From: Gammaproteobacteria bacterium
GTDB lineage: Bacteria; Pseudomonadota; Gammaproteobacteria; Burkholderiales; SG8-39
DNA: 64,000 bases
Direction: 5' to 3'
Assembly: GCA_041496705.1 (NCBI GenBank)
Contig: JBGQFD010000001.1
Span: 39,127 to 103,126, forward strand
In this document: positions 19,947 through 34,647 of the stretch, in pieces
How the letters are laid out: every line of letters begins with the position of its first letter
Numbering within the stretch: position 1 is the stretch's first letter
The notes under the pieces: generated by a model
The model's input: only the letters and a program-made list of their open reading frames with translations
Databases searched by the model: none
What the model was told of the DNA's origin: nothing
Translations under genes and position numbers: made by a program

Positions 19947-21047
19947 TCAGGTATTCTTGGAGACGACGATATTCGGGAACTTCGAGGTCATGTCCCGCGC
20001 CGATTCGGCGATCTTGATAGCGACGCGCCGCGCGATGGCGCGGTAAGCCTCGGCAGCTCGACCGTCGGGATCGGCCACCACCGTCGGCCTGCCCGAATCG
20101 GCCTGCTCGCGGATATTGATGTCGAGGGGCATCGCTCCCAGGAGCTCGGTGCCGTAGTCCTTGCACATGCGCTCGGCCCCGCCCTGGCCGAAGATGTGCT
20201 CCTCGTGGCCACAGTTGGAGCAGATGTGAGTGCTCATGTTCTCGACCACGCCGAGAATGGGAATACCGACTTTTTCGAACATCTTGAGCCCCTTGCGGGC
20301 GTCGATCAGGGCGATGTCCTGAGGCGTGGTGACGATCACCACCCCGGTCACGGGCACCTTCTGCGCAAGCGTTAGCTGAATGTCTCCGGTGCCGGGCGGC
20401 ATGTCGACGATCAGGTAGTCCACGTCGCGCCAGCGAGTGTCCTTGAGAAGCTGCTCCAGTGCCTGGGTCACCATCGGTCCGCGCCAGACCATGGGCGTGT
20501 CGCTATCGATCAGAAAACCGATCGAGATCGCCTGGATCCCGTGTCCGGTCATGGGCTCGAGGGTCTTGCCATCGCGCGACTCTGGCCTCCCGGTGATGCC
20601 GAGCATCATGGGTTGGGAAGGTCCGTAAATGTCGGCGTCCAGCACTCCGACACTGGCACCTTCGGCCGCCAGCCCGAGAGCCAGGTTCACCGCGGTCGTG
20701 GATTTGCCCACGCCCCCCTTGCCCGAGGCCACGGCGATGATGTTCTTGACGCCGGGAATGAGCTTCACCCCGCGCTGTACCGAGTGCGAAACGATCTTGC
20801 TCGTGACGCTGACCGATACGGTACCCAATCCGGGGATCGCGCGCAGCCTCGTCGATACGAGCCGGCGCAACGGATCGAACTGGGTTTTCGCGGGATAGCC
20901 GAGTTCGACCTCCAGCGTGACGGCGTCGCCGTCGATGCGCAGGTTCTTGACCGATTTCGTGGCAAGGAGATCCTTGCCAGTATTCGGGTCAAGAATTTCC
21001 TTGAGCGCGCCGTGAATTTGTTCCTGCGTGACTGGCATGGTGGACAT
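19947..21047 (-). CDS. apbC: iron-sulfur cluster carrier protein ApbC/Mrp
   Basis: 366 aa with an N-terminal MIP18/DUF59-like domain, a deviant Walker A (SGKGGVGKST) and a CSNCGH cluster-binding motif. Confidence 0.93.
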   Translation of the reverse strand: MSTMPVTQEQIHGALKEILDPNTGKDLLATKSVKNLRIDGDAVTLEVELGYPAKTQFDPLRRLVSTRLRAIPGLGTVSVSVTSKIVSHSVQRGVKLIPGVKNIIAVASGKGGVGKSTTAVNLALGLAAEGASVGVLDADIYGPSQPMMLGITGRPESRDGKTLEPMTGHGIQAISIGFLIDSDTPMVWRGPMVTQALEQLLKDTRWRDVDYLIVDMPPGTGDIQLTLAQKVPVTGVVIVTTPQDIALIDARKGLKMFEKVGIPILGVVENMSTHICSNCGHEEHIFGQGGAERMCKDYGTELLGAMPLDINIREQADSGRPTVVADPDGRAAEAYRAIARRVAIKIAESARDMTSKFPNIVVSKNT

Positions 21048-21210
21048 AGAGGGGCAGCATCCGGGGGTTACCGGCCGGCAATAGGTTGATATTCTAGCAA
21101 CTTTCGGATGCTCCCCGGGCGCCAGCGCGGTAGAATGCTGTCATACCGGGGGGACGGCCGCCGGCATCGCCGGCGGTTCGGACGCGGACCACTACGACTC
21201 TTACCAAGGC

Positions 21211-22545
21211 ATGCCGGACCCGACCAACAGAACCTTTATCTATAGCGTGCTGTTTCTCGACATTGTCGAGTATTCACAGTGCGTTGTCCCCAAACAGATC
21301 CGGCTCAAGGAGCGTTTCAACGCGGTTCTGACCGAGGCGATCGCCGGGGTGCCGGCGGACGATCGCATCATCCTCGATACTGGCGACGGGGCGGCAGTCT
21401 GTTTCCTGGGGGACCACGAAGACGCCATGTTCGTTGGCCTGGCCATGCGCGACGCGATCGCCTGCGAGGATCAGACCGGGGGCCGTGAGTTGGACATTCG
21501 CATCGGCATCAACCTCGGGCCTGTGAGGCTCGTCAAGGACATCAACGGCAACCCCAACATCATCGGCGACGGCATCAACGTGGCCCAGCGCGTCATGAGT
21601 TTCGCCGTGAAGGGCCAGATCCTGGTGCATCGCGATTACTACAACCTCATGGTGCGCATGTCCGAGGATTACGCCCAGCTGTTCCACTACGAAGGGGCGA
21701 TGACAGACAAGCACGTTCGCGAGCACGATGTTTATTCCATCATCAACGCCGCGCCCAGCACCCTCCGCCGGACCGCGCCCTTGCCTGTGCCCAGGCCGGT
21801 GATACGCCTGCCACGCCTCAGGCTTCCCAGCATCCACCTGTCCGACCTGCGGGTTCTCAGCGCACGCCTTCGGCCGATCGCTTCCAGGCTGGCGGTGAAC
21901 AGCAAGCTCCTTGTCGCCGCGCCGCTGGCGTTCATCCTGATCGTCAGTTCCGGCGTGATTGCGCGCAGCCACCGGAACTCCCCTGGAGAAGAAAAGAGCG
22001 GCGCACCCGTGTCGTCCGGCACGCCCAGGGCGGAGCAATCCCCCCTGAAGGTCGCAACGGCCGGAGCCGATCAGATCCAGCCGGACCAGGGGAGAACTGC
22101 CCCGGTGGAAAATCCGGCCACCCCTCCCAAGTCGGAGAATCCGACCGCTCCGGCCAAGTCGCAGCGGCCCATCGCCAACGCCAGGGCCCGGGATGCAGGT
22201 TCGACACGGGATGCCTTCCCGGCTGGCCGGAGGGCACCTGTGCAGACCGCCAGGGTCAAGGATGTCGCCGAAATGCTGGCCCTGCCCAAGGAGGCCGAAA
22301 CTCCTGTCGCGCCGCGTGGGCCCACCGCGGACACGGGGATCAACGTCGTGATCGTCGCGTTTCCCTGGGCCGAGGTCTACGTAGATGGGAACCGGCTGGG
22401 GGTCAGTCCGCCGCTCCGCTCGATCCCGCTCAAGCCGGGCAAGCACAAGGTAGAACTGCGCAATTCTTCTTTTCCCGCCCACGTCGAGACCGTCGAGGTC
22501 AAGAGCGGCGCTGAGATCAGCGTAAAGCACCGGTTCCGCCGCTGA
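21211..22545 (+). CDS. class III nucleotidyl cyclase-homology-domain protein with TM helix, Pro-rich linker and PEGA-like C-terminal domain
   Basis: 444 aa with CHD-like motifs VLFLDIVEYS, ILDTGDGAAVCF and IGDGINVAQRV, TM helix LLVAAPLAFILIVSSGVIA, and the C-terminal FPWAEVYVDGNRLGVSPP...KPGKHKVEL. Confidence 0.75.
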   Translation: MPDPTNRTFIYSVLFLDIVEYSQCVVPKQIRLKERFNAVLTEAIAGVPADDRIILDTGDGAAVCFLGDHEDAMFVGLAMRDAIACEDQTGGRELDIRIGINLGPVRLVKDINGNPNIIGDGINVAQRVMSFAVKGQILVHRDYYNLMVRMSEDYAQLFHYEGAMTDKHVREHDVYSIINAAPSTLRRTAPLPVPRPVIRLPRLRLPSIHLSDLRVLSARLRPIASRLAVNSKLLVAAPLAFILIVSSGVIARSHRNSPGEEKSGAPVSSGTPRAEQSPLKVATAGADQIQPDQGRTAPVENPATPPKSENPTAPAKSQRPIANARARDAGSTRDAFPAGRRAPVQTARVKDVAEMLALPKEAETPVAPRGPTADTGINVVIVAFPWAEVYVDGNRLGVSPPLRSIPLKPGKHKVELRNSSFPAHVETVEVKSGAEISVKHRFRR

Positions 22546-22551
22546 GGGACG

Positions 22552-22953
22552 ATGCCACGCTTCCGCTATCACGCGCTGTTGTTCGGATGCCTGGTGCTGA
22601 CCGGTTGCGCGTCGTTCAGGAACTTCAACGAGGACCTGGTCGGGATGTTCGCGGCGAAGGGTCAGAGGGAACTCGAAGTCGCCATCAAAGCCTACGAAGA
22701 CGGGGAGTACGCCTACTCGGCAAGGCTCCTGCAGGCAAGCCTGGATTCGGGCCTGCGCGGGGCGGCCAACCAGGTGCGAGCACACAAGTACCTCGCGTTT
22801 CTTCACTGCGCGGCCAGCCGCATACAACAGTGCCGCGACGAGTTCAGGAAGGCACTCGACATCGACCCTTCCTTCGATCTCCGGGACGACGAAGTCGGGC
22901 ACCCCGTGTGGGGTCCGGTTTTTCGCAGCCTGAGAACGACCTCCAGGAAATAA
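22552..22953 (+). CDS. small lipoprotein with TPR-like helical repeat
   Basis: 133 aa with lipobox LVLTGC. Only 6-nt gaps separate it from both neighbouring genes. Confidence 0.65.
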   Translation: MPRFRYHALLFGCLVLTGCASFRNFNEDLVGMFAAKGQRELEVAIKAYEDGEYAYSARLLQASLDSGLRGAANQVRAHKYLAFLHCAASRIQQCRDEFRKALDIDPSFDLRDDEVGHPVWGPVFRSLRTTSRK

Positions 22954-22959
22954 CCGGCC

Positions 22960-24150
22960 ATGACCGAACCGTGGCTGCTCGGCCGCTATGAAGTCGTTGC
23001 CGAACTCGGCAAAGGCGCCATGGGCGTCGTCTATCGGGCGAACGACCCGATGCTCAACCGCACGGTGGCCATCAAGACCATCAACATGGACGAGGCCGAG
23101 AACGAGGGTATGGCCGAGTACGAGGCGCGCTTCTACACCGAGGCCAAGGCGGCGGGCGGCCTGAATCACCCGAACATCATCATCATCTATGACATCGGCA
23201 AGAGCAGCCACCTAGTGTACATGGCGATGGAGTACATCGAGGGACGCGAGCTGCGCGAATTGCTCACCGAAGGGCAGCCGCTGCCCGTCGTACAGGGAAT
23301 CGACATCGCGGCGCAGATCGGGGAGGGATTGGCGTACGCCCACCAGCACCAGGTCGTGCATCGGGACATCAAACCTGCCAACATCCTCATCACCGGCGAA
23401 GGCCGCGCCAAGATCGCCGATTTCGGCATCGCGCGCATGCGCTCCAGCGAGACGCGTACGCAGACGGGCATCATTCTCGGCTCACCCAAGTACATCTCTC
23501 CCGAGCAGGTGGTCGGCAAGCGCGCCGACCATCGCTCCGATATCTTTTCCCTGGGCGTGATCCTCTACCAGTGCCTGACCGGCATGACCCCCTTCAACGG
23601 CGAAGGTCTGACCGCGCTCATGTACCAGATCACCAACTACGAGCCGCCGCCACCCAGTTCGACCAATCCCCAGGTACCGGTGATGCTCGACTACATCATC
23701 GCCAAGGTCCTCGCCAAGGCGCCGGAGGCGCGCTACCAGAGTGCGGCCGACCTGGCGAACGACCTGCGCGAGTGCAGATTGCAGATGGAAGGTGGCACGG
23801 CGGCCAGCCTATCGGCGACGGCGCCGATCCCCATCATGCCGGCCCTGGCGGCAGCCGCGCAGAAGCCTTCGGCGCTCCCGGCGCCCGATGCCACGGAGGA
23901 TCCTGCGGCGCTGCCACCTCCCACCAAGGGCATATCGCGCGCTTTCGACTCGCACGAAGCCACCTCGCGCCTGATGCGCCAGATCAGCGCCGACGGCACC
24001 GAGGAATTCGTGGTGTCGCCGTTTTCAACCAGCGCGCTGCGGTCTGGCAGGCGGTCCACGGAACATCCCTGGGGACCGCGCGAGAACGCCATCTTCGCTG
24101 CTACCGTAATCGCCGCGATGTTCATCGCTACCGCCATCGTCCTGCTGTGA
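22960..24150 (+). CDS. Hanks-type serine/threonine protein kinase, C-terminally tail-anchored
   Basis: 396 aa with GKGAMGVVY, VAIK, HRDIKPANIL, DFGIA and SPEQ. A single TM helix sits at the extreme C-terminus (IFAATVIAAMFIATAIVLL). Confidence 0.9.
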   Translation: MTEPWLLGRYEVVAELGKGAMGVVYRANDPMLNRTVAIKTINMDEAENEGMAEYEARFYTEAKAAGGLNHPNIIIIYDIGKSSHLVYMAMEYIEGRELRELLTEGQPLPVVQGIDIAAQIGEGLAYAHQHQVVHRDIKPANILITGEGRAKIADFGIARMRSSETRTQTGIILGSPKYISPEQVVGKRADHRSDIFSLGVILYQCLTGMTPFNGEGLTALMYQITNYEPPPPSSTNPQVPVMLDYIIAKVLAKAPEARYQSAADLANDLRECRLQMEGGTAASLSATAPIPIMPALAAAAQKPSALPAPDATEDPAALPPPTKGISRAFDSHEATSRLMRQISADGTEEFVVSPFSTSALRSGRRSTEHPWGPRENAIFAATVIAAMFIATAIVLL

Positions 24151-24211
24151 GCGCAGTGCCGCGCCGGAGACCGGCGCGTGGCGGTAAAATGACAGCTTTT
24201 TGAAAGTCAGC

Positions 24212-26299
24212 ATGTCTCGCCGGCTGTTCGTCACCACCGCCCTCCCTTACGCGAACGGCGCGTTTCACATCGGCCATATCATGGAGTACATCCAGGCCGA
24301 CATCTGGGTGCGGTTTCAGCGCATGCAGGGCCATGAAGTGCATTTCATCGGCGCCGACGACGCGCACGGCGCGCCCATCATGCTCGCGGCGGAGAAGGCC
24401 GGAAAATCGCCTGAGCAATTCATCGACGAAATCGCGAAGGGACGCAAGCAATACCTCGACGGCTTTCACATCGAATTCGACAACTGGCACTCGACTCATT
24501 CGAAAGAAAATACCGAGCTATCGCAAGACATATACCGCAAGCTCGTCAAGGCGGGGCTCGTCTACAAAGAAGCGATAGCGCAGTTCTTCGATCCAGTGAA
24601 AAGCATGTTCCTCGCCGACCGTTACATCAAGGGCGAATGCCCAAACTGCGGCGCGAAGGATCAGTACGGGGATGCGTGCGAGAACTGCAGCACCGTGTAT
24701 TCACCCACGCAGCTCAAGAACCCGTACTCGACCCTCTCCGGTGCGAAGCCAGAGCTCAAGTCGTCTGAGCACTACTTCTTCAGACTTTCCGATCCGAAGT
24801 GCACCGAGTTCCTGAAGAAATGGATCGCGGACGCAGGACGGCTCCAGCCGCAGGTCGCGAACAAGGCAAGAGAATGGCTCGAAGGCAAGGGCGAGAAGAC
24901 GCTCGCCGACTGGGACATCTCGCGCGACCCGCCGTATTTCGGCATCCGCATCCCCGACATCAAGGAAGAGAAATACCTCTACGTCTGGCTCGACGCGCCG
25001 ATCGGTTATCTCGCGAGCCTGAAGAACTACTGCTCGAAGAAGAAGCTCGACTTCGAAAAGCTCCTCGCCGACCCGAAAACCGAGCAGATTCACTTCATCG
25101 GAAAAGACATCATCTACTTCCATGCCCTGTTCTGGCCGGCGATGCTGAAATTCGCCGGCTACAAAATCCCGGACCACGTCTACGTGCACGGCTTCATCAC
25201 CGTGTCGGGCGACAAGATGTCGAAGAGCCGCGGAACAGGGATCGATCCTCTGCGATATCTAGAGCTTAGGATGAATCCGGAGTGGCTGCGCTACTACTTG
25301 GCGGCAAAGTTGAATGCAAACGTCGAGGACGTTGACTTCAACCCCGACGACTTCATAGCGCGAGTCAACAGCGATCTGGTGGGCAAGTATGTGAATATCG
25401 CGAGCCGTGCAGCAAAACTCCTCAGTGAGTATTTCCAAGGCCGCATTGATCCAATCAGGGGCCCCGCTCACTCACCTGCCTATTTGCTCGAGCACGCACG
25501 AGCTTCCGCCGATATGACCAAGGGCTACTACGAACGCAGAGAATACAGCCTCGCTCTTCGGGACGCGATGCACCTTGCAGATGAAGTAAACGAGTATTTC
25601 GATTCCAGGAAGCCCTGGGAATTGGCGAAGAAAGTCGCCTTGGAATCAGGGCAACATTTCAAAGAAGAACTCCACGAAGTATGTTCGGTCGCGCTAATTT
25701 GCTTCCGACGCTTGACGATCCAGTTGTCTCCTGTTTTGCCAGTCTTGAGTGAGACGGTGGCCAGAGAGCTTTTCGGAATGGATCGACCATTTACGTGGGC
25801 TGATCTCGAAGTAATACCCGAAAGAATCAATCCTTACCATCACCTAGTGACCCGTGTGGAAGAAAAGCAGCTCGATCAACTCTTCGACGTCCAGTCCGTG
25901 CCGCAGCCGGCGGCACCCCAGCGGCACGCCGAAAAGCAGCAACACGCAGCCAAGGAGCTATCCGTGGGCGACGGGACCATTTCAATCGACGACTTCAACA
26001 AAGTGGACCTGCGCATCGCGAAGATCGTCAAAGCCGAGCAAGTCGAAGGGGCGGACAAGCTCCTGAGGCTGACCCTCGACCTCGGCGGTGGAACGCGCAC
26101 GGTGTTCGCCGGGATAAAATCCGCCTACGACCCGGCGAAGCTCGAGGGCCGGCTCACTGTGATGGTCGTGAACCTCGCGCCGCGCAAGATGAAGTTCGGC
26201 GTTTCGGAGGGCATGGTGCTTGCCGCGAGCGGCGACGACCCGGGCCTTTACCTGCTCGCGCCGGACAACGGCGCCCGGCCGGGCATGAAGGTCAAATAG
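24212..26299 (+). CDS. metG: methionine--tRNA ligase
   Basis: ATG at codon 5 of ORF 24200..26299. Motifs: [11 protein letters not shown] (HIGH), Zn knuckle CPNCGA...CENC, KMSKS, and a C-terminal EMAP/Trbp111-like domain. Confidence 0.97.
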
Positions 26300-26301
26300 G
26301 A

Positions 26302-28323
26302 ATGGACGTGGCGCCGCTTTCAGGTTCGCTGCTCGTCGCGGTTGCGTGGCTCGCGATTGCGGCGCTGGGGCTGGTACCCGCCGGCAACGCGTTCTTCGCC
26401 AGGCGGCTCGCGTTTCCGCTCGGGGCGCTCGCCGGTGTCGCGCTCGCGGCCTTCGGCCTACAGGCGGTGTGGCTGCCGGCGCAGTCCTTGACGCTGCCGC
26501 TCGGGCTGCCCGACCTGCCTTTCCATCTGCGCATCGACGCGCTCGCAGGATTCTTCCTGATGCTGCTCGGCTCGGTGTCGGCGGGCATCTCCGTGTACTC
26601 CGCGGGCTATTTCCGCGAAGAGTCCTCGGGGCGCCTCGCGCTCATCAGCCTTCAGTACCACGTGTTTCTTGCCAGCATGGCCTTCGTGCTGCTCGCCGAC
26701 GACGCCTATATGTTCATGGTGGCCTGGGAAACGATGGCGCTGTCCTCGTATTTTCTGGTCATCACCGACCACCGGCAGCCGGCGATACGCAGCGCCGGTT
26801 TCCTCTATCTGCTGATCGCGCATCTGGGAGCGATCGCGATCCTCTTGTGCTTCGGCGTGCTGCACGGCGGACGCGGCGATTACACGTTCGCCGCGCTGCG
26901 CGCCGCCCAGCTGCAGCCGGCGTGGGCGAGCGTGGCCTTCCTGCTCGCCTTCTTCGGCTTCGGCGCCAAGGCGGGGATGATCCCGCTTCACGCATGGCTG
27001 CCCGAGGCGCACCCGGCTGCGCCTTCCCCCGTCTCGGCACTGATGAGCGGCATCATGCTCAAGACCGCCATCTACGGCATGGTGCGGGTGATCTTCGACC
27101 TGATCGGAAACGTGCGCTGGGAATGGGGCATGGTGGTGCTCGCGGTCGGTGCCGGCACGACGCTCTTCGGCGTGCTCTACGCCCTCATGCAGCACGATCT
27201 GAAACGCCTGCTCGCCTATCACTCGGTCGAGAACATCGGGATCATCCTGCTCGGCCTCGGTATGTCGATGGTGTTCATCGGCTTCGGCCATCCGGCGGCA
27301 GGTGCGCTGGGCCTGATCGCCGGGCTCTACCACACCCTCAACCACGCCGTGTTCAAGGGACTCCTCTTCCTCGGCGCGGGCTCGATCCTGCACTCGACGG
27401 GCCTGCGCAACCTGAACGACATGGGCGGCCTGATCCACAGCATGCCGAGGACCGCGTTCTACTTCCTCATCGGCGCGCTCGCGATCTCCGCGCTGCCGCC
27501 CTTGAACGGATTCGTATCCGAGTGGCTGACTTTCCAGACTGCCCTGCAAGCACCCCTCCTTCTCCAGAACAGCATCGTGCGCAGCCTGCTGCCGCTTTTC
27601 GCGGCGACTCTGGCCCTCGCCGGCGCGCTCACCGCGATGTGCTTCGTCAAGGTCTACGGCATCGCCTTTCTCGGCCGGCCGCGCGAGCCCGCGCATCCTT
27701 CGCCTCTGCCCCACGCGGGGGACGCGGGCCTCATGGAACGCTTTGGCATGGCCTGGCTTGCGGCCGGCTGCTTCGTGCTCGGGCTATTCCCGAGCTCGTT
27801 TCTATTGATCCTGAACCGAGTCGGCGTTTCGCTGACCGGCCAGGGCTTGTCCGAGCAGGCGCTTGCCGGTTCGGGCTGGCTGTGGCTCGTGCCCACCGCG
27901 CCGGAGCAGGCCAGCTACTCGCCCGTCATCTTTCTGGTGGTGATTGTCGCCGTGACGCTGCTTGCGTTCCTGCTGGTGCGCCGCTTCTACCACGGCCGCA
28001 TGCGCTTCGCCGATCCCTGGGACTGCGGCTACCCCGAGCAGACCCCGCGCATGCAGGACACGGCGGACGCTTTCGGCCAGCCGATCCGCCACGTCTTTGG
28101 CCCGATCTACCGCATGGACCGCAGGCTCCCCGGTCCCGACGACGCCGCGCCGAGATACGTGCTCAAAGTCGAAGACCGCCATTGGTATTGGCTCTACCTG
28201 CCCGTGGCGCGTGCGGCCGAATTCGTCTCGTCGAAGATCGCCCTGCTGCAGCAAGGCCGGATCAGCATTTACCTGCTCTACAGCTTCATCACCCTGATCG
28301 CGCTGCTGGTGTTCGTGAGATGA
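26302..28323 (+). CDS. HyfB-like antiporter-type membrane subunit (NuoL/M/N family)
   Basis: 673 aa, polytopic, same length class as E. coli HyfB. Motifs WETMALSSYFLV and LPEAHPAAPSPVSALMSG. The start lies 2 nt after the metG stop. Confidence 0.85.
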   Translation: MDVAPLSGSLLVAVAWLAIAALGLVPAGNAFFARRLAFPLGALAGVALAAFGLQAVWLPAQSLTLPLGLPDLPFHLRIDALAGFFLMLLGSVSAGISVYSAGYFREESSGRLALISLQYHVFLASMAFVLLADDAYMFMVAWETMALSSYFLVITDHRQPAIRSAGFLYLLIAHLGAIAILLCFGVLHGGRGDYTFAALRAAQLQPAWASVAFLLAFFGFGAKAGMIPLHAWLPEAHPAAPSPVSALMSGIMLKTAIYGMVRVIFDLIGNVRWEWGMVVLAVGAGTTLFGVLYALMQHDLKRLLAYHSVENIGIILLGLGMSMVFIGFGHPAAGALGLIAGLYHTLNHAVFKGLLFLGAGSILHSTGLRNLNDMGGLIHSMPRTAFYFLIGALAISALPPLNGFVSEWLTFQTALQAPLLLQNSIVRSLLPLFAATLALAGALTAMCFVKVYGIAFLGRPREPAHPSPLPHAGDAGLMERFGMAWLAAGCFVLGLFPSSFLLILNRVGVSLTGQGLSEQALAGSGWLWLVPTAPEQASYSPVIFLVVIVAVTLLAFLLVRRFYHGRMRFADPWDCGYPEQTPRMQDTADAFGQPIRHVFGPIYRMDRRLPGPDDAAPRYVLKVEDRHWYWLYLPVARAAEFVSSKIALLQQGRISIYLLYSFITLIALLVFVR

Positions 28324-28333
28324 GCTGCGCAAG

Positions 28334-29284
28334 ATGAACTACGGGGCTGCAAGCGCGTTCCAGATCCTGCAGTCGGTGTTCGTGGTGCTCGCCGCGCCGC
28401 TGCTCATGGGCTGGGTCAATCAGTGCCGCGCCTGGCTGCAGAACCGATCGGCGCCGAGCCTGCTGCTGCCGTACTGGACGCTGGCGAAGCTGTTCCACAA
28501 GGACGCCGTGTTCGCACGCAACGCCTCGCCGATTTTTCGATGGACGCCCTACATTCTGTTCGGCTGCATGTGGCTCGCCGCGGGCATCGTGCCGGTACTG
28601 GCGACCGGCCTGCCCTTCGCGCCCGCCGCGGACATCATCGCGCTCGTCGGAGTGTTCGCGCTCGCGCGAGTGTTCTCCGCGCTCGCCGCCATGGACATCG
28701 GCACCTCGTTCGGCGGACTGGGCGCCCGGCGCGAAATGCTGATCGGTTTTCTCGCCGAGCCGGCGATGCTGATGACGCTGTTCACCGCGGCCTTCATTTC
28801 CGGCTCCACCCAGCTCACTACCATCGTGGACACGCTCGGACACCGCGAGTTCGCGCTCCACCCGAGCCTCGCCTTCGCGGCGGTCGCCTTCCTCATGGTG
28901 CTGCTCGCCGAGAACGCGCGCATCCCGATTGACAATCCGACTACTCACCTCGAGCTCACCATGGTGCACGAGGCGCTGATTCTCGAGTACTCGGCGCGGC
29001 ATCTTGCGCTGATCGAATGGGCGGTCGCGATCAAGCTCTTCGCCTACATCACCATCGGCATTGCGCTCTTCGTCCCCTGGGGCATCGCCGAGGCCGGCGA
29101 CTGGATGGCGCTGCCGCTGGCGGTCGCGGCGCTCCTGATCAAGCTCGCCCTGGCCGGCGCCGGGCTGGCACTGATCGAAGCAGTGCTCGCCAAGCTGCGG
29201 CTCTTCCTCGCCCCCGAGTTCCTGTCCACCGCGTTCCTGCTGGCGGTGCTGGGCATGCTCACGCACTTTCTGGTTCAAGGCTGA
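28334..29284 (+). CDS. HyfC/HycD-like (NuoH-family) membrane subunit
   Basis: 316 aa, polytopic, with FDIPTAE-equivalent region RIPIDNPTTHLELTMVHEALILEYS. Confidence 0.85.
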   Translation: MNYGAASAFQILQSVFVVLAAPLLMGWVNQCRAWLQNRSAPSLLLPYWTLAKLFHKDAVFARNASPIFRWTPYILFGCMWLAAGIVPVLATGLPFAPAADIIALVGVFALARVFSALAAMDIGTSFGGLGARREMLIGFLAEPAMLMTLFTAAFISGSTQLTTIVDTLGHREFALHPSLAFAAVAFLMVLLAENARIPIDNPTTHLELTMVHEALILEYSARHLALIEWAVAIKLFAYITIGIALFVPWGIAEAGDWMALPLAVAALLIKLALAGAGLALIEAVLAKLRLFLAPEFLSTAFLLAVLGMLTHFLVQG

Positions 29285-29289
29285 AAGAG

Positions 29290-29946
29290 ATGCCGCTCCT
29301 CGCCCAGCTCGTCAACGTTCTCGCGGCATTTCTGCTGCTGCTCGCGTTCGCCATGCTTTCCCAGCGCCGCGTCCTCACTCTGATCAAGCTCTTCGCCTGG
29401 CAGGGCGCGGCGCTCGCGTTGTCGACCGGAATCGTCGCCTGGTCGACCGGTCAGACGCACCTCTACTGGTCGGCGCTGCTGACGGTGCTGCTCAAGGTGA
29501 TCCTCATCCCCTGGGTCCTGCACCGACTGATCGACCGACTGTACGTGCGCTGGGACATCGAGACCCTGATCAACATTCCGACCACGATGCTGATCGGCAT
29601 CGGGCTGGTGATCTTCGCCTTCGCTCTTGCCGCCCCGATCTCGCAGATGGCGAGCACACTCACGCGCTCCACCCTGGGGATCGCGATGGCGAGCATTCTG
29701 CTCTCCTTCCTCATGATGATCGTGCGCAGAAAGGCGGTGCCGCAGGTGATCGGCTTTCTCGCGATGGAAAACGGCCTGTTCTTCGCCGCTACCAGCGCGA
29801 CCTACGGAATGCCGCTTGTGGTGGAGCTCGGCGTGGCGCTCGACGTGCTGGTGGGCACCTTCATCTTCGGCATCTTCTTCTTCCATATCCGCGAGCAGTT
29901 CGACTCCCTCGACATCCGGCATATGGAAAAGCTGAAGGAAGACTGA
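29290..29946 (+). CDS. HyfE-like small membrane subunit
   Basis: 218 aa starting at the internal Met of ORF 29017..29946. About six TM helices. Position and size match HyfE. Confidence 0.75.
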   Translation: MPLLAQLVNVLAAFLLLLAFAMLSQRRVLTLIKLFAWQGAALALSTGIVAWSTGQTHLYWSALLTVLLKVILIPWVLHRLIDRLYVRWDIETLINIPTTMLIGIGLVIFAFALAAPISQMASTLTRSTLGIAMASILLSFLMMIVRRKAVPQVIGFLAMENGLFFAATSATYGMPLVVELGVALDVLVGTFIFGIFFFHIREQFDSLDIRHMEKLKED

Positions 29947-29947
29947 G

Positions 29948-31396
29948 ATGGAAATCGCGCTTGTCCTCGGCGTCCCGCTACTCGGCGGGCTGCTACTCGC
30001 GCTCGTCGGCCACAAGCGCTGGGCGCCGGAGCTGAATGCTTTAATGAGCCTCATCGCCCTTGTCGCCGCGGCAGCGCTGACCCGTCGCGTCATCACCGAC
30101 GGCCCGATGACGGCGCTGCAGGAGCAGTTCTTCGTCGATCCGTTCAACGTGTTCCTGGTGGCGCTGACGGCCTTCGTCGCCTTCACCACCGCGCTGTTCT
30201 CCCGGCCCTACATGCGCATCGAGGAGCACCACGGGCGCCTGAACGCGGCACGCTTGCGCCTCTACCACAGCATGTATCAGTTGTTTTCCTTCACCATGGT
30301 GTTGTGCCTGCTATCGAACAATGTCGGCATCCTGTGGGTGGCACTGGAGGGCGCGACGCTCTCGACCGTGCTGCTGGTGAGCCTGTACCGCACGCCAGCG
30401 AGCCTCGAGGCGGCGTGGAAGTATTTCATTCTCTGCTCGGTCGGCATCGCGCAGGCATTGTTCGGCGTGATTTTGCTCTATTTCGCCGCGGAAAAAGTTC
30501 TCGGCCCGGGAGGGACTTCACTCCTGTGGACGCACCTGTACGCAGTGCGCGAACAGCTCGAACCGACGGTGCTGTCGCTCGCGTTCGTGTTCCTGCTTGT
30601 CGGCTTTGGCACCAAAGTGGGCCTGGTGCCGTTGCACAACTGGCTGCCCGACGCGCACGCCGAAGGCCCGACCCCGGTATCGGCGGTGCTCTCGGGGCTG
30701 CTCCTCAACGTTGCGCTATACGCCGTGGTGCGCAGCAAGGTCCTGGTGGACGGCGCGCTCGGGCGCAATTTCTCCGGCGGACTGATGATGGGCTTCGGCC
30801 TGCTCTCGGTCGTCGTTGCGGCGTTCTTCCTCTCCCGGCAGCGCGACATCAAACGCATGTTCGCCTATTCGTCGGTCGAGCACATGGGCATCATGACTTT
30901 CGCCTTCGGCATGGGCGGACCGGTGGCGGCGTTCGCAGGACTCCTGCACATGACGGTGCACTCGCTCACCAAGAGCGCGATCTTCTTCACCGTCGGCCAC
31001 GCCTCGCAGAAGACCGGCACGCAGAACATGGCGGACATCCGCGGGCTCATCGAGCAGAGCCCCGCGATCGGTTGGGGCCTGGTGCTCGGCAGCCTCGCCA
31101 TCCTCGGCATGCCGCCCTTCGGCGTGTTCACGAGCGAGTTCATGGTGCTCACCACCGCGATGCACGAGCACCCCTGGGCGACGCCTTTCCTGCTGGTGGC
31201 GCTCGGCGTGGCGTTCGCCGCGATTTTCGGCAAGGTGCAGCCGATGGTATTCGGCGAAACCAATGCGCGCCGGCTGCCGCACGCGCCGGCGCTCATCCCG
31301 GTTTTCGTCCACCTGGGGATCGTATTGATGCTCGGACTCTACATTCCGCCCTATCTCGTCGGCTGGTATCGCCAGGCGGCGGCGCTGATCGGGTGA
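29948..31396 (+). CDS. HyfF-like antiporter-type membrane subunit (NuoM/N family)
   Basis: 482 aa with LHNWLPDAHAEGPTPVSAVLSG and YSSVEHMG. Confidence 0.85.
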   Translation: MEIALVLGVPLLGGLLLALVGHKRWAPELNALMSLIALVAAAALTRRVITDGPMTALQEQFFVDPFNVFLVALTAFVAFTTALFSRPYMRIEEHHGRLNAARLRLYHSMYQLFSFTMVLCLLSNNVGILWVALEGATLSTVLLVSLYRTPASLEAAWKYFILCSVGIAQALFGVILLYFAAEKVLGPGGTSLLWTHLYAVREQLEPTVLSLAFVFLLVGFGTKVGLVPLHNWLPDAHAEGPTPVSAVLSGLLLNVALYAVVRSKVLVDGALGRNFSGGLMMGFGLLSVVVAAFFLSRQRDIKRMFAYSSVEHMGIMTFAFGMGGPVAAFAGLLHMTVHSLTKSAIFFTVGHASQKTGTQNMADIRGLIEQSPAIGWGLVLGSLAILGMPPFGVFTSEFMVLTTAMHEHPWATPFLLVALGVAFAAIFGKVQPMVFGETNARRLPHAPALIPVFVHLGIVLMLGLYIPPYLVGWYRQAAALIG

Positions 31397-32952
31397 TCGT
31401 GAACGAGACATTCAAAGAGCTGGGATTGAACGCCGCAGCGCTTCCTGGGGCGATGCCGGTGTTCTGCGCCTCGATCCCGGCCGGCGAGTTGCGCGGCATC
31501 TGCGAGCAGGCGCGCGCGCGCAAGGCGCGCCTCGTGGCGCTGTGGGGCAGCGACGAGACGCAGCGCCATGCGGGTTTCGCGCTGCACTTCGCGTTGGCCT
31601 TCCCCGCGGGTCTCCTCTGGCTCAGCGTGCCGCTATCGCGAGAGGACCCGCGCTATCCCGGCATCGCCGACATCTATCCGAGCGCGAACCGCATGCAGCG
31701 CGCCACCGCCGACCTGCTCGGTATCCGTCCGGATGAGGGCGCCGATCCACGCAAGTGGCTGCGCCACGGCGCCTGGCCCGAGGACACCTTTCCGCTGCGC
31801 AAGAGCGTCGGTGCGGGCGCCCGCTTCCCCCAGGCGCCGGACCGCTATCCATTTGTCTCCGTCGAAGGCGAAGGCGTGCACGAGATCCCGGTCGGCCCGG
31901 TCCATGCGGGCACGATCGAGCCCGGGCATTTTCGCTTTTCCATCGTCGGCGAGAAAATCCTGCGGCTGGAGGAGCGGCTCGGCTACAAGCACAAGGGCAT
32001 CGAGAAGCTCTTCGAGTCGATGACGCTCGAAGAGGGCGCGAAGCTCTCGGGCAGGGTGAGCGGCGATTCTACGGTCGCCTATGCCTGGGCCTACGCCATG
32101 GCGGTCGAAGGGGCCACGGGAACCGCGCCGCCGAGCCGGGCGCTCGCGCTGCGCGGCGTCTTCCTCGAGCTCGAGCGCATCGCCAACCACCTCGGCGACC
32201 TCGGTTACCTCGGCAACGACGTCGCGCTGTCCTTCGGCTTTTTTCAGTTCTGGCGGCTGAAGGAAGATCTGCTGCGGACGAACGCGCGCCTGTTCGGCCA
32301 CCGCTACCTGATGGACGCCGTCGTTCCCGGCGGCGTCGCGAAGGACCTGCCGCGCCCCGAGGCCGAATTCCTCACCGGCCACCTGGACAAGATCGAGCGC
32401 GAGGTCGTGACGCTCAAGGCAATCTACGACGAGCACGCGGGCGCGCAGGACCGCTTCATCATGACAGGACAGGTGCCCCCGGAACTCGCCGAGCGCATGG
32501 GCCTCACCGGGATCGCCGGCCGCGCGAGCGGGATGACGCGCGATCTGCGCAGCGATCATCCGATTCCGCCCTACCAGCAGATCGACCCCCGCATCGCTTC
32601 GCACACGCGCGGGGACGTCGCGGCGCGCGTATCGGTGCGCTTCGACGAGGTCTTCGAATCGATGCGCCTGGTACGCGCGCTCGTGCAGCAGCTGCCGCCC
32701 GGCGCGATCCGCACGGCGGTCGCGGCGGCCGAAGCGGGCGGGCGCGGCCTCGGCTGGGTCGAGGGCTGGCGCGGCGAAGTGCTGATCGCGCTCGAGACCG
32801 CCGGGGCAAACCGCATCCACCGCCTGCATCCGCACGATCCTTCCTGGCAGAACTGGCCGCTCCTCGAGCACGCGGTGCACGGCAATATCGTTCCAGACTT
32901 TCCGCTCATCAACAAGTCGTTCAATCTGAGTTACAGCGGAGCAGACCTCTGA
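31393..32952 (+). CDS. HyfG/HycE-like NuoC-NuoD fusion subunit lacking the [NiFe] cysteine ligands
   Basis: 519 aa from a GTG that overlaps the hyfF-like stop (GTGA). Motifs GPVHAGTIEPGHFRF, LGYKHKGIEK and ERIANHLGDLG. The ligand motifs read RVSGDSTVAY and NLSYSGADL-stop in place of RxCGxCxxxH and DPCxxCxxR/H. Confidence 0.85.
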   Translation: MIVNETFKELGLNAAALPGAMPVFCASIPAGELRGICEQARARKARLVALWGSDETQRHAGFALHFALAFPAGLLWLSVPLSREDPRYPGIADIYPSANRMQRATADLLGIRPDEGADPRKWLRHGAWPEDTFPLRKSVGAGARFPQAPDRYPFVSVEGEGVHEIPVGPVHAGTIEPGHFRFSIVGEKILRLEERLGYKHKGIEKLFESMTLEEGAKLSGRVSGDSTVAYAWAYAMAVEGATGTAPPSRALALRGVFLELERIANHLGDLGYLGNDVALSFGFFQFWRLKEDLLRTNARLFGHRYLMDAVVPGGVAKDLPRPEAEFLTGHLDKIEREVVTLKAIYDEHAGAQDRFIMTGQVPPELAERMGLTGIAGRASGMTRDLRSDHPIPPYQQIDPRIASHTRGDVAARVSVRFDEVFESMRLVRALVQQLPPGAIRTAVAAAEAGGRGLGWVEGWRGEVLIALETAGANRIHRLHPHDPSWQNWPLLEHAVHGNIVPDFPLINKSFNLSYSGADL

Positions 32953-33470
32953 TGTATCAACTCCTGAAACAGATCGCAAAGACCGGCATCGTCACCGAGC
33001 CCGCGCCGCTCCCGGATGCGGCACTGCGCGAAACCGAGCAGCGGCTGGGCGAGGTGATCCTGCGGCACTTCGGGCGCGCGCTGGCGATCCGCCACGTAGA
33101 CGCCGGATCGTGCAACGGCTGCGAACTCGAGATCCATGCGATGAACAGCCCCTACTACAACCTCGAGCGGCTCGGCATCAAGTTCGTCGCCAGCCCGCGC
33201 CATGCCGACCTGCTGCTGGTGACCGGGCCGGTGTCGCGCCATATGGAGGTCGCGCTCAAGCGCACCTACGACGCCACACCCGATCCCAAGCTGGTCGTGG
33301 CGATCGGCGACTGTGGCTGCACGGGGGGAGTGTTTGGCGAGAGCTACGCGAGCTGCGGACGCGTGGCTAACGTGATCCCGGTGGACATCGCCGTGCCCGG
33401 CTGTCCGCCCGAACCGCTAGCGATCATGCGCGGCATCCTCACCGCGATCACCCCCGGAAAACGGCGCTAG
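32952..33470 (+). CDS. HyfI/HycG-like NuoB-family [4Fe-4S] subunit
   Basis: 172 aa, with the ATG overlapping the upstream TGA. Cluster cysteines are retained (GSCNGCELE, IGDCGCTGG, PGCPP). Confidence 0.85.
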   Translation: MYQLLKQIAKTGIVTEPAPLPDAALRETEQRLGEVILRHFGRALAIRHVDAGSCNGCELEIHAMNSPYYNLERLGIKFVASPRHADLLLVTGPVSRHMEVALKRTYDATPDPKLVVAIGDCGCTGGVFGESYASCGRVANVIPVDIAVPGCPPEPLAIMRGILTAITPGKRR

Positions 33471-33475
33471 CGTCG

Positions 33476-33913
33476 ATGGAACTCTCACTCGCCTTCATCG
33501 GCTGGTTCTTCACGCTGACCTCGGCCGGCGCCGTGCTCCTTTCAGTGATCCTCATCGCCACGCTGTTCAACGCCGGCGAGCTGTCGCGGCGTTACCTCAG
33601 CTACAGCTTCTGGAACGACCTGATGCTGGGTGCAATCTGGGTGCTCGGGCTCGCGGGGGGAATCGGCGTGATCCGCCTGCAGCCCTGGGGCCGCTATCTG
33701 CTGGAGCTTTTCTGCTGGGCGCTGATCGTGCTGATGCTGCTCTCGGCCGCGAGTCGCCTGTACGCGCTGCGCCGGTCCGGGCCGGGCGACCCGCCGGTCA
33801 ACTGGCTCGGTGCGATCTCCGGGGTGACGCTGATAGTCGTCCCGCTCCTCGCCATCTGCGCCGCTACGATCGTGACGCTGCGCAGCCCCGAGGCACTGAA
33901 AGCATTCTCCTAG
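33476..33913 (+). CDS. four-TM membrane protein of unknown function, last gene of the hyf-like operon
   Basis: 145 aa, starting 5 nt after the NuoB-like gene ends. Four hydrophobic helices. I recognise no family. Confidence 0.55.
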   Translation: MELSLAFIGWFFTLTSAGAVLLSVILIATLFNAGELSRRYLSYSFWNDLMLGAIWVLGLAGGIGVIRLQPWGRYLLELFCWALIVLMLLSAASRLYALRRSGPGDPPVNWLGAISGVTLIVVPLLAICAATIVTLRSPEALKAFS

Positions 33914-34056
33914 GGCTTGAGGTAAGCGTAACCCTCCTTTGGCTGCAGGTGCGTGGCCTGCACCACACCGGAGGGCACGAACTCGACACCAAGGATGAAC
34001 TGCTCCTTCTTCAGCTTGCGGTTGCGCAGCGTGATCTCGCAGAGCTGGAACTTCAC
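33910..34056 (-). CDS. candidate 48-aa small protein ([48 protein letters not shown])
   Basis: Below the ORF-track size cutoff; found by reading the minus strand. Third-codon positions are G/C in about 42 of 48 codons, typical of real genes here. GTG start preceded by an in-frame TAA. No clear Shine-Dalgarno and no family recognised. Confidence 0.3.
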
Positions 34057-34105
34057 GAAACGCCGATCACTTTACGCGAACCGCCCAAGATTGGAAAATC
34101 CACCC

Positions 34106-34375
34106 ATGGCCAAACAGCTGAGAATTTCCGGCCACGTCCAAGGTGTGGGCTTCCGCTACTCGTTGATGGAGGAAGCCGAACGGCTGGGCGTCACCGGCTG
34201 GGTGAGGAACCGCCGCGACAGCACGGTGGAAGCCGTGGTGGATGGTACGCCCGATACGGTCGAGGCGATGCTCGCCTGGGCGCGCCGCGGGCCTCGCGGT
34301 GCGCGCGTGACCGACGTCGAAGTCACCGAAGTTCCGGGAAGCTTCGAGCGCTTCGAGATGCGTCCGACCGAATAG
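34106..34375 (+). CDS. acyP: acylphosphatase
   Basis: 89 aa with HVQGVGFRY and [12 protein letters not shown] signatures. Confidence 0.9.
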
Positions 34376-34407
34376 CGCGCACCCCCGACACCGACCGTTG
34401 CGCGAAT

Positions 34408-34647
34408 TCAGCTGCGCTGCCCCTCGCAAGCCTCCGAGTCGCGCTGGCAGGCTTCCTGGCAGGCCTGCGCGGCCGGAGCCTCGGTGGTCGTGCGCCGGCA
34501 GATCTTCATGCACGTGTCGAATGCGCCGCGGCACGTGGGGGCGCCGTCGGGCCCGGAGATGCCCCTGTAGGCGTAGTAGCCGACCGCCACGGCAATGGCG
34601 ATCACGACCAGAAGACCGAACGAGCTCAGGCCCTGCTGCGAATTCAT
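34408..34647 (-). CDS. small membrane-anchored cysteine-rich protein
   Basis: 79 aa with TM helix LSSFGLLVVIAIAVAVGYYAY followed by C-x6-C-x3-C-x12-C-x3-C-x6-C. ATGA overlap with the upstream lipoprotein gene. Confidence 0.6.
   Translation of the reverse strand: MNSQQGLSSFGLLVVIAIAVAVGYYAYRGISGPDGAPTCRGAFDTCMKICRRTTTEAPAAQACQEACQRDSEACEGQRS

Follow-up and report, generated by a model that had tools for sequence, protein, structure and literature searches.

A reduced Ehr-type gene cluster adjoining metG in a soil Burkholderiales lineage, predicted to encode a non-hydrogenase relative of complex I

Complexes designated Ehr, for energy-converting-hydrogenase-related, have been defined by their lack of CxxC motifs and have had no function assigned to them (PMC6349859; PMC10284858), and in Nitrospira the Ehr complex has been placed beside group 4f (PMC10284858). 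Subunit names including EhrA, EhrC, EhrL, and EhrS are found in a study reporting that the Ehr proteins of Geobacter sulfurreducens, members of a different Ehr clade from the one considered here, are more abundant on formate (PMC7894505). An "incomplete" hyfBCEFGI operon has been described in Cupriavidus metallidurans CH34 (Rmet_4666-4671) and Cupriavidus necator H16 (H16_A2196-2201), and in the genome paper on C. metallidurans a part of the hyfBCEFGI genes in lithotrophy was considered unlikely (PMC2864759). The catalytic subunit encoded by hyfBCEFGI of Acidithiobacillus ferrooxidans is scored by HydDB as a non-hydrogenase (PMC7735108). In the literature searched, work bearing on the function of Ehr, or of H16_A2196/Rmet_4666, consists of mentions in genome, proteome, and metagenome studies. 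The subject here is a cluster of this kind within a stretch of 64,000 nucleotides (nt) of contig JBGQFD010000001.1 (assembly GCA_041496705.1; a metagenome-assembled genome of uncultured Burkholderiales), hereafter the window, in which metG, encoding methionine--tRNA ligase, is followed on the same strand by six genes designated ehrA, ehrB, ehrC, ehrD, ehrL, and ehrS and by a gene for a small protein with four transmembrane (TM) helices, termed the 4-TM protein (Table 1).

Judged from the subunits that it is predicted to encode, the window cluster belongs to the already known Ehr family as a complex of composition EhrABCDLS, and it is orthologous to the six-gene hyfBCEFGI of Cupriavidus, Paraburkholderia, Variovorax, Acidithiobacillus, and Nitrospira. 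Specifically, homologues of the large and small subunits of group 4 hydrogenase are encoded in one cluster together with NuoH-like and NuoL/M/N-like proteins, the large subunit is devoid of both NiFe-binding CxxC motifs, and the small subunit retains the ligands of the proximal [4Fe-4S] cluster, as far as sequence motifs tell. Within this family, the subfamily represented by the window is the most reduced form. An earlier note on the window had called the apparent co-transcription with an aminoacyl-tRNA synthetase gene unusual; the module itself is not unusual, being one of a family of at least 8000 protein clusters (in a word-index search) and at least 600 species representatives, whose hosts include Burkholderiaceae, iron and sulfur oxidizers, Nitrospirota, methanotrophs, and Acidobacteriota.

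For these analyses the window was read as open reading frames (ORFs), with junctions taken directly from the letters, and its proteins were assigned to families by Pfam and NCBIfam profile scans. The main comparison set consists of 80 species-representative loci whose large subunit is 44-79% identical to that of the window, and individual loci are cited below by L numbers; a second set, from which the comparison of the gaps between the large and small subunit genes (L-S gaps) is drawn, comprises 80 loci taken from metagenomes at the nearest relatives that bear the NiFe cysteines. A contig identical to that of the window is also present in JGI 3300052992, in other samples, and in GCA_041492625.1. 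The coordinates, the gene order, and the gaps or overlaps of no more than 10 nt given in the earlier note proved correct when the junctions were re-read, as did its placement of the first ATG (26302) 2 nt past the metG stop codon (TAG, 26297-26299); from metG to the 4-TM gene, successive spacings are +2, +10, +5, +1, -4, -1, and +5 nt. The order B-C-E-F-L-S is identical in all genome loci long enough to show gene order, and the ratio of nonsynonymous to synonymous substitution rates (dN/dS) of the six core genes is 0.09-0.25 in comparisons with two relatives.

The evidence that carries the assignment as a non-hydrogenase is found in EhrL. The best match of this protein in the PDB is HycE of Escherichia coli (7z0s_E, E = 1e-60), and alignment to HycE places Ser, Asp, Ser, and Gly at the positions of the four Cys ligands of the [NiFe] center. 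At the second of the two former ligand motifs (ex-L1 and ex-L2 in Table 1), DPCYSC of HycE aligns with NLSYSG, and the end of EhrL reads NLSYSGADL-stop. The only cysteines of the protein, C25 and C37, both lie within the NuoC-like domain. Because EhrL terminates three residues past the ex-L2 motif, it offers no tail to a HycI-type protease. The earlier note, which described the module as hyfBCEFGI-like, had passed over the lack of any [NiFe] ligand in the large subunit. The replacement motifs are invariant in 21 close homologues; the R.SGD form prevails wherever the motif is readable in the 80 loci, with rare Ser-to-Cys and Ser-to-Ala variants, and the N.SY[SA]G.D-stop form is likewise the rule across the 80 species representatives, with few variants. 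Cys-less forms also dominate among representatives clustered at 50%, and the Cys-bearing true hydrogenases, with the motifs RxCGxCxxSH and ELCYxCxDR, begin at approximately 38% identity. Since the residues that replace the NiFe ligands are conserved across relatives, their presence is not a matter of decay. A module of this kind is predicted neither to make nor to consume H2. At the old NiFe site there is, instead, a near-invariant pocket composed of Ser223-Gly-Asp225 and Ser513-Tyr-Ser-Gly516, with Glu176 and His179.

Two tandem Ehr-type clusters are present in some genomes (L040, 79-2932; L044, 326-3743; L074, 143-4392; L092; L100; L105). The second large subunits of L040, L044, and L074 were considered as candidate true hydrogenases and rejected, the NiFe cysteines being missing there too; the motifs of these second copies read IVGDSS.. 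/ ..SYCGNDL and RVSGTSS.. / ..SYSGTDM.

In the small subunit, EhrS, one proximal [4Fe-4S] site is predicted to be kept. Its best PDB matches are MbhJ (6cfw_J, at 3e-41) and HycG (7z0s_G, at 5e-37), and its cluster motifs are GSCNGC, GDCGC, and GCPP; C54 and C57 align with cysteines of MbhJ and HycG, C151 lies inside GCPP, and either C121 or C123 provides the third ligand. Of 83 loci, 78 carry the full set of three motifs, and the other sequences are truncated. What precedes the NuoB-like domain is a vestige of the ferredoxin-like subunit HyfH/HycF, itself NuoI-like, amounting to the first 19 residues of EhrS. When a hidden Markov model of the EhrS N-terminus, built from approximately 65 species, was compared with 6255 ORFs, nearly everything that it retrieved was the N-terminus of a HyfH-like protein or of a HyfH-NuoB fusion, such as MFKILQKAIRTGIVTTDYP. 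A 30-residue profile of the same N-terminus found nothing among PDB sequences, after which the link to HycF was made via full-length fused relatives: in that of L128, residues 1-106 resemble residues 1-112 of HycF (7z0s_F, E = 2e-11) and the rest resembles HycG (E = 5e-47).

Consistent with such an origin, the L-S gap is 220-900 nt long in most of the true hydrogenases and other Ehr clades (SISGD...TDR type) that share the B-C-E-F-L-S order, and in these relatives the stretch encodes a HyfH/HycF-like domain with two [4Fe-4S] motifs, or with only one in many Ehr clades. Often the domain is fused in frame with the NuoB-like subunit, giving proteins of 280-314 amino acids. In a multiple alignment, EhrS displays about 19 HyfH-like residues, then a deletion of about 120 residues by which both Fe-S motifs are lost, and then the linker and the NuoB domain. 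These data document deletion of the HyfH/HycF-type domain from a fused HyfH-HyfI ancestor rather than to its relocation, and to a stepwise dismantling of the electron-input wire among relatives, from two predicted clusters to one and then to none, with a stub left behind. It follows that an electron partner is not simply encoded elsewhere and that the proximal [4Fe-4S] cluster of EhrS is the sole predicted redox cofactor.

This outcome bears out the earlier note, which had described a minimal module without electron-input subunits and without an obvious electron donor; both descriptions are strengthened by the in-situ deletion and by the 19-residue stub. Profile scans likewise found none of the components that it had listed as missing from the window, namely HyfA/HycB, HyfH/HycF, HyfD, formate dehydrogenase, a regulator, and a maturation protease. 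More broadly, Pfam results for 39 window proteins and for the identical contig L001 contained no gene of ferredoxin-like or FhlA type and none for formate dehydrogenase, Hyp proteins, or HycI, and a CxxCxxCxxxC scan of crudely called window ORFs revealed no ferredoxin-like gene. Given that the NiFe cysteines are replaced and the C-terminal extension is missing, the absence of formate dehydrogenase, hyp genes, and HycI is expected rather than puzzling.

The membrane arm, by comparison, is well preserved. EhrA aligns to NuoL over its full length, with residues assigned as the Glu of TM5 and the Lys of TM7, TM8, and TM12 located in the motifs AWE, GAKAG..PLH, MLKTAIYG, and FKGLLF, respectively, and with a dN/dS of 0.09-0.14. 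EhrD has its best PDB matches in MbsH (6u8y_H) and MbhH (6cfw_H), and its Glu/Lys motifs assigned to TM5, TM7, and TM12 align. The position of ehrB does not vary among the 80 genome loci, and EhrC, for which no match was found among Pfam families or PDB sequences, is 45-92% identical in all loci. Where the earlier note counted three antiporter-like subunits, only EhrA and EhrD qualify (PF00361); the HyfC-like protein is NuoH-like and the HyfE-like protein is a small membrane subunit.

Table 1. Features of the metG-ehr region, in window coordinates.
Feature	Position	Strand	Description	Basis
metG	24212-26299	+	methionine--tRNA ligase with C-terminal tRNA-binding domain, 695 amino acids; alternative TTG start at 24200; TAG stop at 26297-26299	NF001100, 877 bits (cut-off 587); PF09334; PF01588; identical gene called on contig L001
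metG stop/ehrA start junction	26297-26304	+	TAG-GA-ATG, 2-nt spacer	read from sequence
ehrA	26302-28323	+	HyfB/NuoL-like, antiporter-type, 673 amino acids; ATG start	PF00361; NF005086, 885 bits (cut-off 667)
ehrB	28334-29284	+	HyfC/HycD/NuoH-like, 316 amino acids	PF00146 NADHdh, E = 2e-30
ehrC	29290-29946	+	HyfE-like small membrane subunit, 218 amino acids	NF008556 (hydrogenase 4 membrane subunit), 78.9 bits, under the cut-off of 136
ehrD	29948-31396	+	HyfF/MbhH/NuoM-N-like, antiporter-type, 482 amino acids	PF00361; NF005045, 865 bits (cut-off 543)
ehrL	31393-32952	+	fused NuoC-NuoD/HycE-like large subunit, 519 amino acids; GTG start	PF00329 and PF00346
ex-L1 NiFe motif	32053-32082	+	RVSGDSTVAY (HycE: RVCGICGFAH)	alignment to 7z0s_E
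ex-L2 NiFe motif	32911-32949	+	NKSFNLSYSGADL, then stop codon (HycE: ..LDPCYSCTD plus extension)	
ehrS	32952-33470	+	NuoB/HycG-like small subunit, 172 amino acids	PF01058
HyfH/HycF (NuoI-like) vestige	32952-33008	+	first 19 residues of EhrS, MYQLLKQIAKTGIVTEPAP	
4-TM gene	33476-33913	+	4-TM protein, 145 amino acids	no Pfam or NCBIfam match

The junction between metG and ehrA, to which the earlier note had drawn attention, is real, and in six lineages its spacing stays between -4 and +2 nt. The window shares a spacing of +2 nt with L089 and L090, and in L008, L087, and L088 the value is -4 nt, the 4-nt overlap being ATGA or GTGA. These loci belong to a clade of at least six species-level lineages of uncultured soil Burkholderiales in which the L subunit is 74-82% identical; in more distant relatives the spacers between metG and ehrA measure 13, 45, 55, and 73 nt. 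The earlier note had proposed that adjacency to metG be followed across genomes, and the outcome is divided: the arrangement is conserved in one clade, whereas in the set as a whole metG, though the commonest neighbor, lies within 10 kb in only 12 of 80 loci and in some betaproteobacterial lineages only. Of the 49 loci with sufficient flank, 5 have metG immediately upstream in the same orientation, as has the partial locus L008; the Gallionellaceae have it downstream and on the opposite strand. The weld to metG is a trait of one clade of soil Burkholderiales and not of the Ehr family. Horizontal replacement of metG, suspected from a G+C content of 0.57 versus 0.66 and from a higher synonymous divergence, was rejected when the same was seen in the whole clade. 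Within it, metG has a G+C content of 0.57-0.66 as compared with 0.64-0.71 in the adjacent ehr genes, and it diverges faster (71-77% versus 74-92% amino-acid identity for ehr genes); given that metG is G+C-poor and 71-77% identical in all pairs of the clade, these are properties of the gene and not signs of recent transfer.

The explanation that best accounts for the whole, and which is held with somewhat more confidence than doubt, is that of an Ehr-type, non-hydrogenase, metG-linked module in which redox chemistry would be coupled to ion translocation. In such a module, a chemical event would take place in the conserved pocket of EhrL (the Ser/Asp pocket), EhrS, and EhrB, and one-electron transfer via the EhrS cluster would link it with a partner, soluble or encoded separately, that would give or take up the electron and dock on the surface vacated by the ferredoxin-like subunit. 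The event in the pocket would be coupled to the movement of H+ or Na+ through EhrB, EhrC, EhrA, and EhrD, and the coupling could run either way, as redox-driven pumping or as gradient-driven reduction of a low-potential acceptor. A bolder proposal, to which only an outside chance is given, is that this most reduced Ehr form constitutes a new energy-converting machine, either a gradient-coupled catalyst or a sensor-gated ion pump, performing chemistry that involves neither H2 nor quinone and doing housekeeping work in aerobic soil betaproteobacteria; housekeeping expression is suggested by the conserved and perhaps translationally coupled metG junction.

Several observations weigh against the favored explanation. 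His38 and Tyr87 of Thermus thermophilus Nqo4, the quinone head-group ligands of NuoD, align without gaps with Ile175 and Gly224 of EhrL (2fug_4), and with these ligands not kept, a quinone site in the style of complex I is unsupported. The position of the TM8 Lys is occupied by Asn in EhrD. No conserved partner gene, and neither a ferredoxin nor a formate dehydrogenase, was found in the 80 neighborhoods, and with the ferredoxin-like wire gone the EhrS cluster could be structural or regulatory. The literature searched holds no experiments on members of the window subfamily, which leaves the mechanism a conjecture. With respect to the link with metG, the argument for co-transcription is drawn from spacing, and a promoter may exist within metG; moreover, L007 carries, at 4678-4786, a metG-ehrA spacer of 109 nt containing inverted repeats rich in G+C as well as two TATAAT-like boxes, an insert from which it follows that the weld is breakable and that an independent promoter may have arisen.

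Foremost among the alternatives, and the least improbable of them though still considered unlikely, is a device that works independently of redox chemistry. In one version it would be an Mrp-like cation/proton antiporter or a gradient-driven machine in which the EhrS cluster is structural or acts as a redox, O2, or NO sensor gating transport; in the other, which shares the same low estimate, the Ser/Asp pocket would perform non-redox chemistry, for example CO2 hydration, driven by an ion gradient. The stepwise loss of HyfH-like clusters in relatives (from two to one to none), the loss of the NiFe site, the lack of a conserved nearby partner gene and of quinone ligands, and the intact antiporter-type subunits all agree with such a device, as do the SulP transporter found upstream in approximately 10 loci, the many chemolithoautotrophs among the hosts (e.g., Gallionella, Thiobacillus, Nitrospirota, Acidithiobacillus, and Mariprofundus), and a linkage to a housekeeping gene that would suit a homeostatic role. 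However, the four cluster cysteines and the interface of the NuoB-, NuoD-, and NuoH-like subunits are strongly conserved, beyond the apparent needs of a passive cap, there is no precedent for a peripheral module of complex I type without redox chemistry, no component resembling carbonic anhydrase or DabA is present, and adjacency to SulP is confined to a minority of loci. Nor does the composition of the module correspond to that of an Mrp antiporter: there are two PF00361 subunits, no match to the MrpE/F/G families, and a NuoB/C/D-like cap. Far less probable is the ordinary split formate hydrogenlyase or hydrogenase-4 that the earlier note had kept in view, i.e., a true H2-evolving group 4 [NiFe] enzyme whose partner genes lie elsewhere in the genome. 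Such an enzyme is suggested by the NCBIfam models "hydrogenase 4 subunit B/F", which score above their cut-offs, by a large subunit whose best PDB match is HycE, and by the increase of G. sulfurreducens Ehr proteins on formate, albeit in a different Ehr clade (PMC7894505), but it would have to function with its four NiFe cysteines replaced, family-wide, in a protein with no other usable cysteines, with no C-terminal maturation tail, and with a HyfH-like domain deleted in situ and not relocated. Furthermore, HycB/HyfA and HycF/HyfH are both missing, no formate dehydrogenase, hyp, or hycI gene lies within the 64 kb, and HydDB calls the catalytic subunit of A. ferrooxidans hyfBCEFGI a non-hydrogenase (PMC7735108). 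Neither formate dehydrogenase H nor FhlA/HyfR was seen in the window or among recurring neighbors in the 80 loci, and both may be encoded elsewhere in the genome. An equally slight probability attaches to a decaying relic, a non-functional remnant of an ancestral hydrogenase that came to lie behind metG by chance. The loss of catalytic residues and of an entire Fe-S domain, and the doubts of the C. metallidurans genome paper about a role in lithotrophy (PMC2864759), could be read in this way; against it stand seven intact ORFs with dN/dS of 0.09-0.35, a gene order kept in 80 species across several phyla, replacement residues conserved in nearly all loci, at least 8000 homologous protein clusters, and a metG junction conserved in six lineages.

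A separate question is whether the ehr genes are transcribed from a regulated promoter of their own in the 3' coding region of metG, in which case the weld would be without regulatory meaning. Promoters within upstream genes are common, spacers of 13-73 nt in distant relatives and the 109-nt spacer of L007 with its TATAAT-like boxes leave room for one, and regulators of OmpR or CopG type adjoin the cluster in other clades. Nonetheless, this arrangement is judged improbable in the window. A promoter/terminator consensus scan of 20900-34500, which can say no more than that there is no obvious signal, found nothing at the junction: there was no sigma-70-like match on the + strand, the 3' end of metG included, the single promoter-like site was on the minus strand, and terminator-like hairpins all fell within coding regions. 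The best of these hairpins, at 27777-27798 (+) inside ehrA, has a 7-bp stem with six G-C pairs and a T-rich tract and is probably due to chance. In addition, synonymous sites of the last approximately 40 codons of metG show no excess conservation among seven orthologues (0.52-0.57 versus a gene average of 0.65, a weak test), and the ATGA or GTGA overlaps of three lineages suggest translational coupling. Given the tight spacing, the lack of a promoter or terminator consensus, and the lack of synonymous constraint, read-through from metG is the simplest reading: metG, the ehr cluster, and the 4-TM gene are likely co-transcribed, metG and ehrA are perhaps translationally coupled, and the linkage would give expression at a housekeeping level, from which the constitutive expression argued for in the earlier note may follow.

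The 4-TM protein is probably a clade-specific accessory that is co-transcribed with the ehr genes. It has 525 homologues, with at least 77% identity among the 120 matches listed, and all named sources among those matches are uncultured Burkholderiales or betaproteobacterial assemblies. Its gene directly follows ehrS in L007, L008, and L087-L090, and no homologue was found in the other 78 genome loci (tblastn, E <= 1e-5). A dN/dS of 0.22-0.35 indicates purifying selection. The AlphaFold2 model is a four-helix bundle (pLDDT 85.7) for which a Foldseek search of the PDB returned nothing below E = 0.2, and it is unlike the small subunits of complex I, Mrp, and the membrane-bound hydrogenase MBH.

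Several features of the surrounding DNA were also recorded. Immediately upstream of metG, on the + strand at 21211-24150, lies a block of three genes, for a cyclase-like/PEGA protein, for a protein of about 130 amino acids whose counterpart in a relative has a faint TPR match, and for a Ser/Thr protein kinase; in the window this block separates metG from apbC. The block is also present in L082, L087, L089, and L090 and is absent in L088; in L082 it separates metG from ehrA, and its kinase gene ends approximately 20 nt before the ehrA start. With the block placed in these ways and read in the same direction as metG, the transcription unit may exceed metG-ehr. In L088, dcd and apbC are divergent from metG, presumably the older context. 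The window, too, has near metG an apbC/Mrp gene (19947-21140, -) for an Fe-S cluster carrier of NUBPL type (PF10609 and PF01883). The mitochondrial ApbC homologue NUBPL/Ind1 is needed for the assembly of complex I; adjacency of apbC and metG is common in proteobacteria, and the proximity of apbC to the Ehr cluster may be coincidental. An Rfam scan of the whole window found no RNA family.

On the other side of the cluster, the stop codon of the 4-TM gene is abutted by a truncated DsrE-family gene (33913-34056, -), of which the C-terminal 48 residues are left; the remnant is 83% identical to residues 91-138 of an intact DsrE-like protein of 138 amino acids in L087-L090, where the gene sits between those for the 4-TM protein and an acylphosphatase. 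A stand-alone acylphosphatase (PF00708) is likewise encoded downstream in the window (34106-34375, +) and recurs in L007, L008, L033, L069, L082, and L087-L090. An N-terminal domain with the acylphosphatase fold is also found in HypF, a hydrogenase maturation protein, and the recurrence of the gene may be a matter of synteny alone. Across the loci, neighbors are only lineage-specific and include metG/apbC/dcd/dnaE synteny, an OmpR-type regulator, SulP, a CopG-like protein, an SthA-like flavoprotein, and acylphosphatase. The SulP-family anion transporter, of approximately 586 amino acids, has its gene directly upstream of ehrA and in the same orientation in about 10 loci (among them L016, L025, L045, L053, L054, L081, L083, and L085), which come from lineages of Thiobacillus, Rhodocyclaceae, and methanotrophs; in Gallionellaceae, the gene for the SthA-like flavoprotein adjoins the cluster. 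Both neighbors may hint at function.

Few relatives of complex I that still await a function are as widespread as the Ehr-type complexes, and the window taken alone is an incremental case for the family. To what is known it adds two modest elements, the vestigial HyfH stub and the metG junction conserved in one clade. The stepwise loss of a fused HyfH domain explains the "missing" electron-input subunit and narrows the possible mechanisms to those that need the proximal cluster only, and the conserved junction argues, in that clade, for constant expression as opposed to induction by anaerobiosis or formate. Annotations of such genes as "hydrogenase 4" or "formate hydrogenlyase" are misleading, and H2 metabolism should not be deduced from them.

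Among the described counterparts is the cluster of C. metallidurans CH34, in which the six genes occur in the same order, amino-acid identities are 54-72%, and RVSGDSTVAY is identical. In a Variovorax record and in Paraburkholderia/Burkholderia loci, the neighbors are spermidine-synthase-like and CopG-type genes rather than metG, and no homologue of the 4-TM protein was detected; the RefSeq names of the six Variovorax orthologues are "hydrogenase 4 subunit B", "NADH-quinone oxidoreductase subunit H", "formate hydrogenlyase", "hydrogenase 4 subunit F", "NADH-quinone oxidoreductase subunit C", and "NuoB family protein". The Ehr type of complex, as in G. sulfurreducens (GSU0739-45) and as reported from Nitrospira and Margulisbacteria, has the same set of subunits, no CxxC NiFe motifs, and a small-subunit cluster that is kept. 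Compared with these other Ehr clades, which retain a NuoI/HyfH-like Fe-S domain, often fused to EhrS, the window subfamily lacks that domain, and the window lineage adds the weld to metG and the trailing 4-TM gene.

Among the hydrogenases proper, hydrogenase-4 (HyfABCDEFGHIJR) and formate hydrogenlyase-1 (HycBCDEFG, PDB 7Z0S) of E. coli share homologous membrane and peripheral core subunits with the window module. Unlike them, the module is without NiFe ligands, HycB/HyfA, HyfD, FdhF, FhlA/HyfR, HycI, and the cleavage tail, and the counterpart of HycF/HyfH is reduced to the 19-residue stub. The putative group 4f [NiFe] hydrogenases (Ehf), about 36-41% identical, come nearest among the relatives that bear the cysteines. 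They share the order B-C-E-F-L-(H)-S and retain RxCGxCxxSH, ELCYxCxDR, and a HyfH-like protein with two [4Fe-4S] clusters between L and S; the window cluster has none of these last three. With complex I (Nuo/Nqo) the window has in common homologues of NuoB, NuoC, NuoD, NuoH, NuoL, and NuoM/N and a cluster site equivalent to N2, whereas NuoE/F/G and NuoI are found neither in the cluster nor in the window. Finally, the best solved matches of EhrD (MbhH, MbsH) and of EhrS (MbhJ) are provided by MBH and MBS/Mbx of Pyrococcus furiosus (6CFW, 6U8Y), both of which retain a NuoI-like subunit with two clusters (MbhN/MbsN) and Mrp-type subunits, neither of which is present in the window complex. Of the two, MBS sets a precedent for a hydrogenase-derived complex that has lost Ni and changed its substrate.

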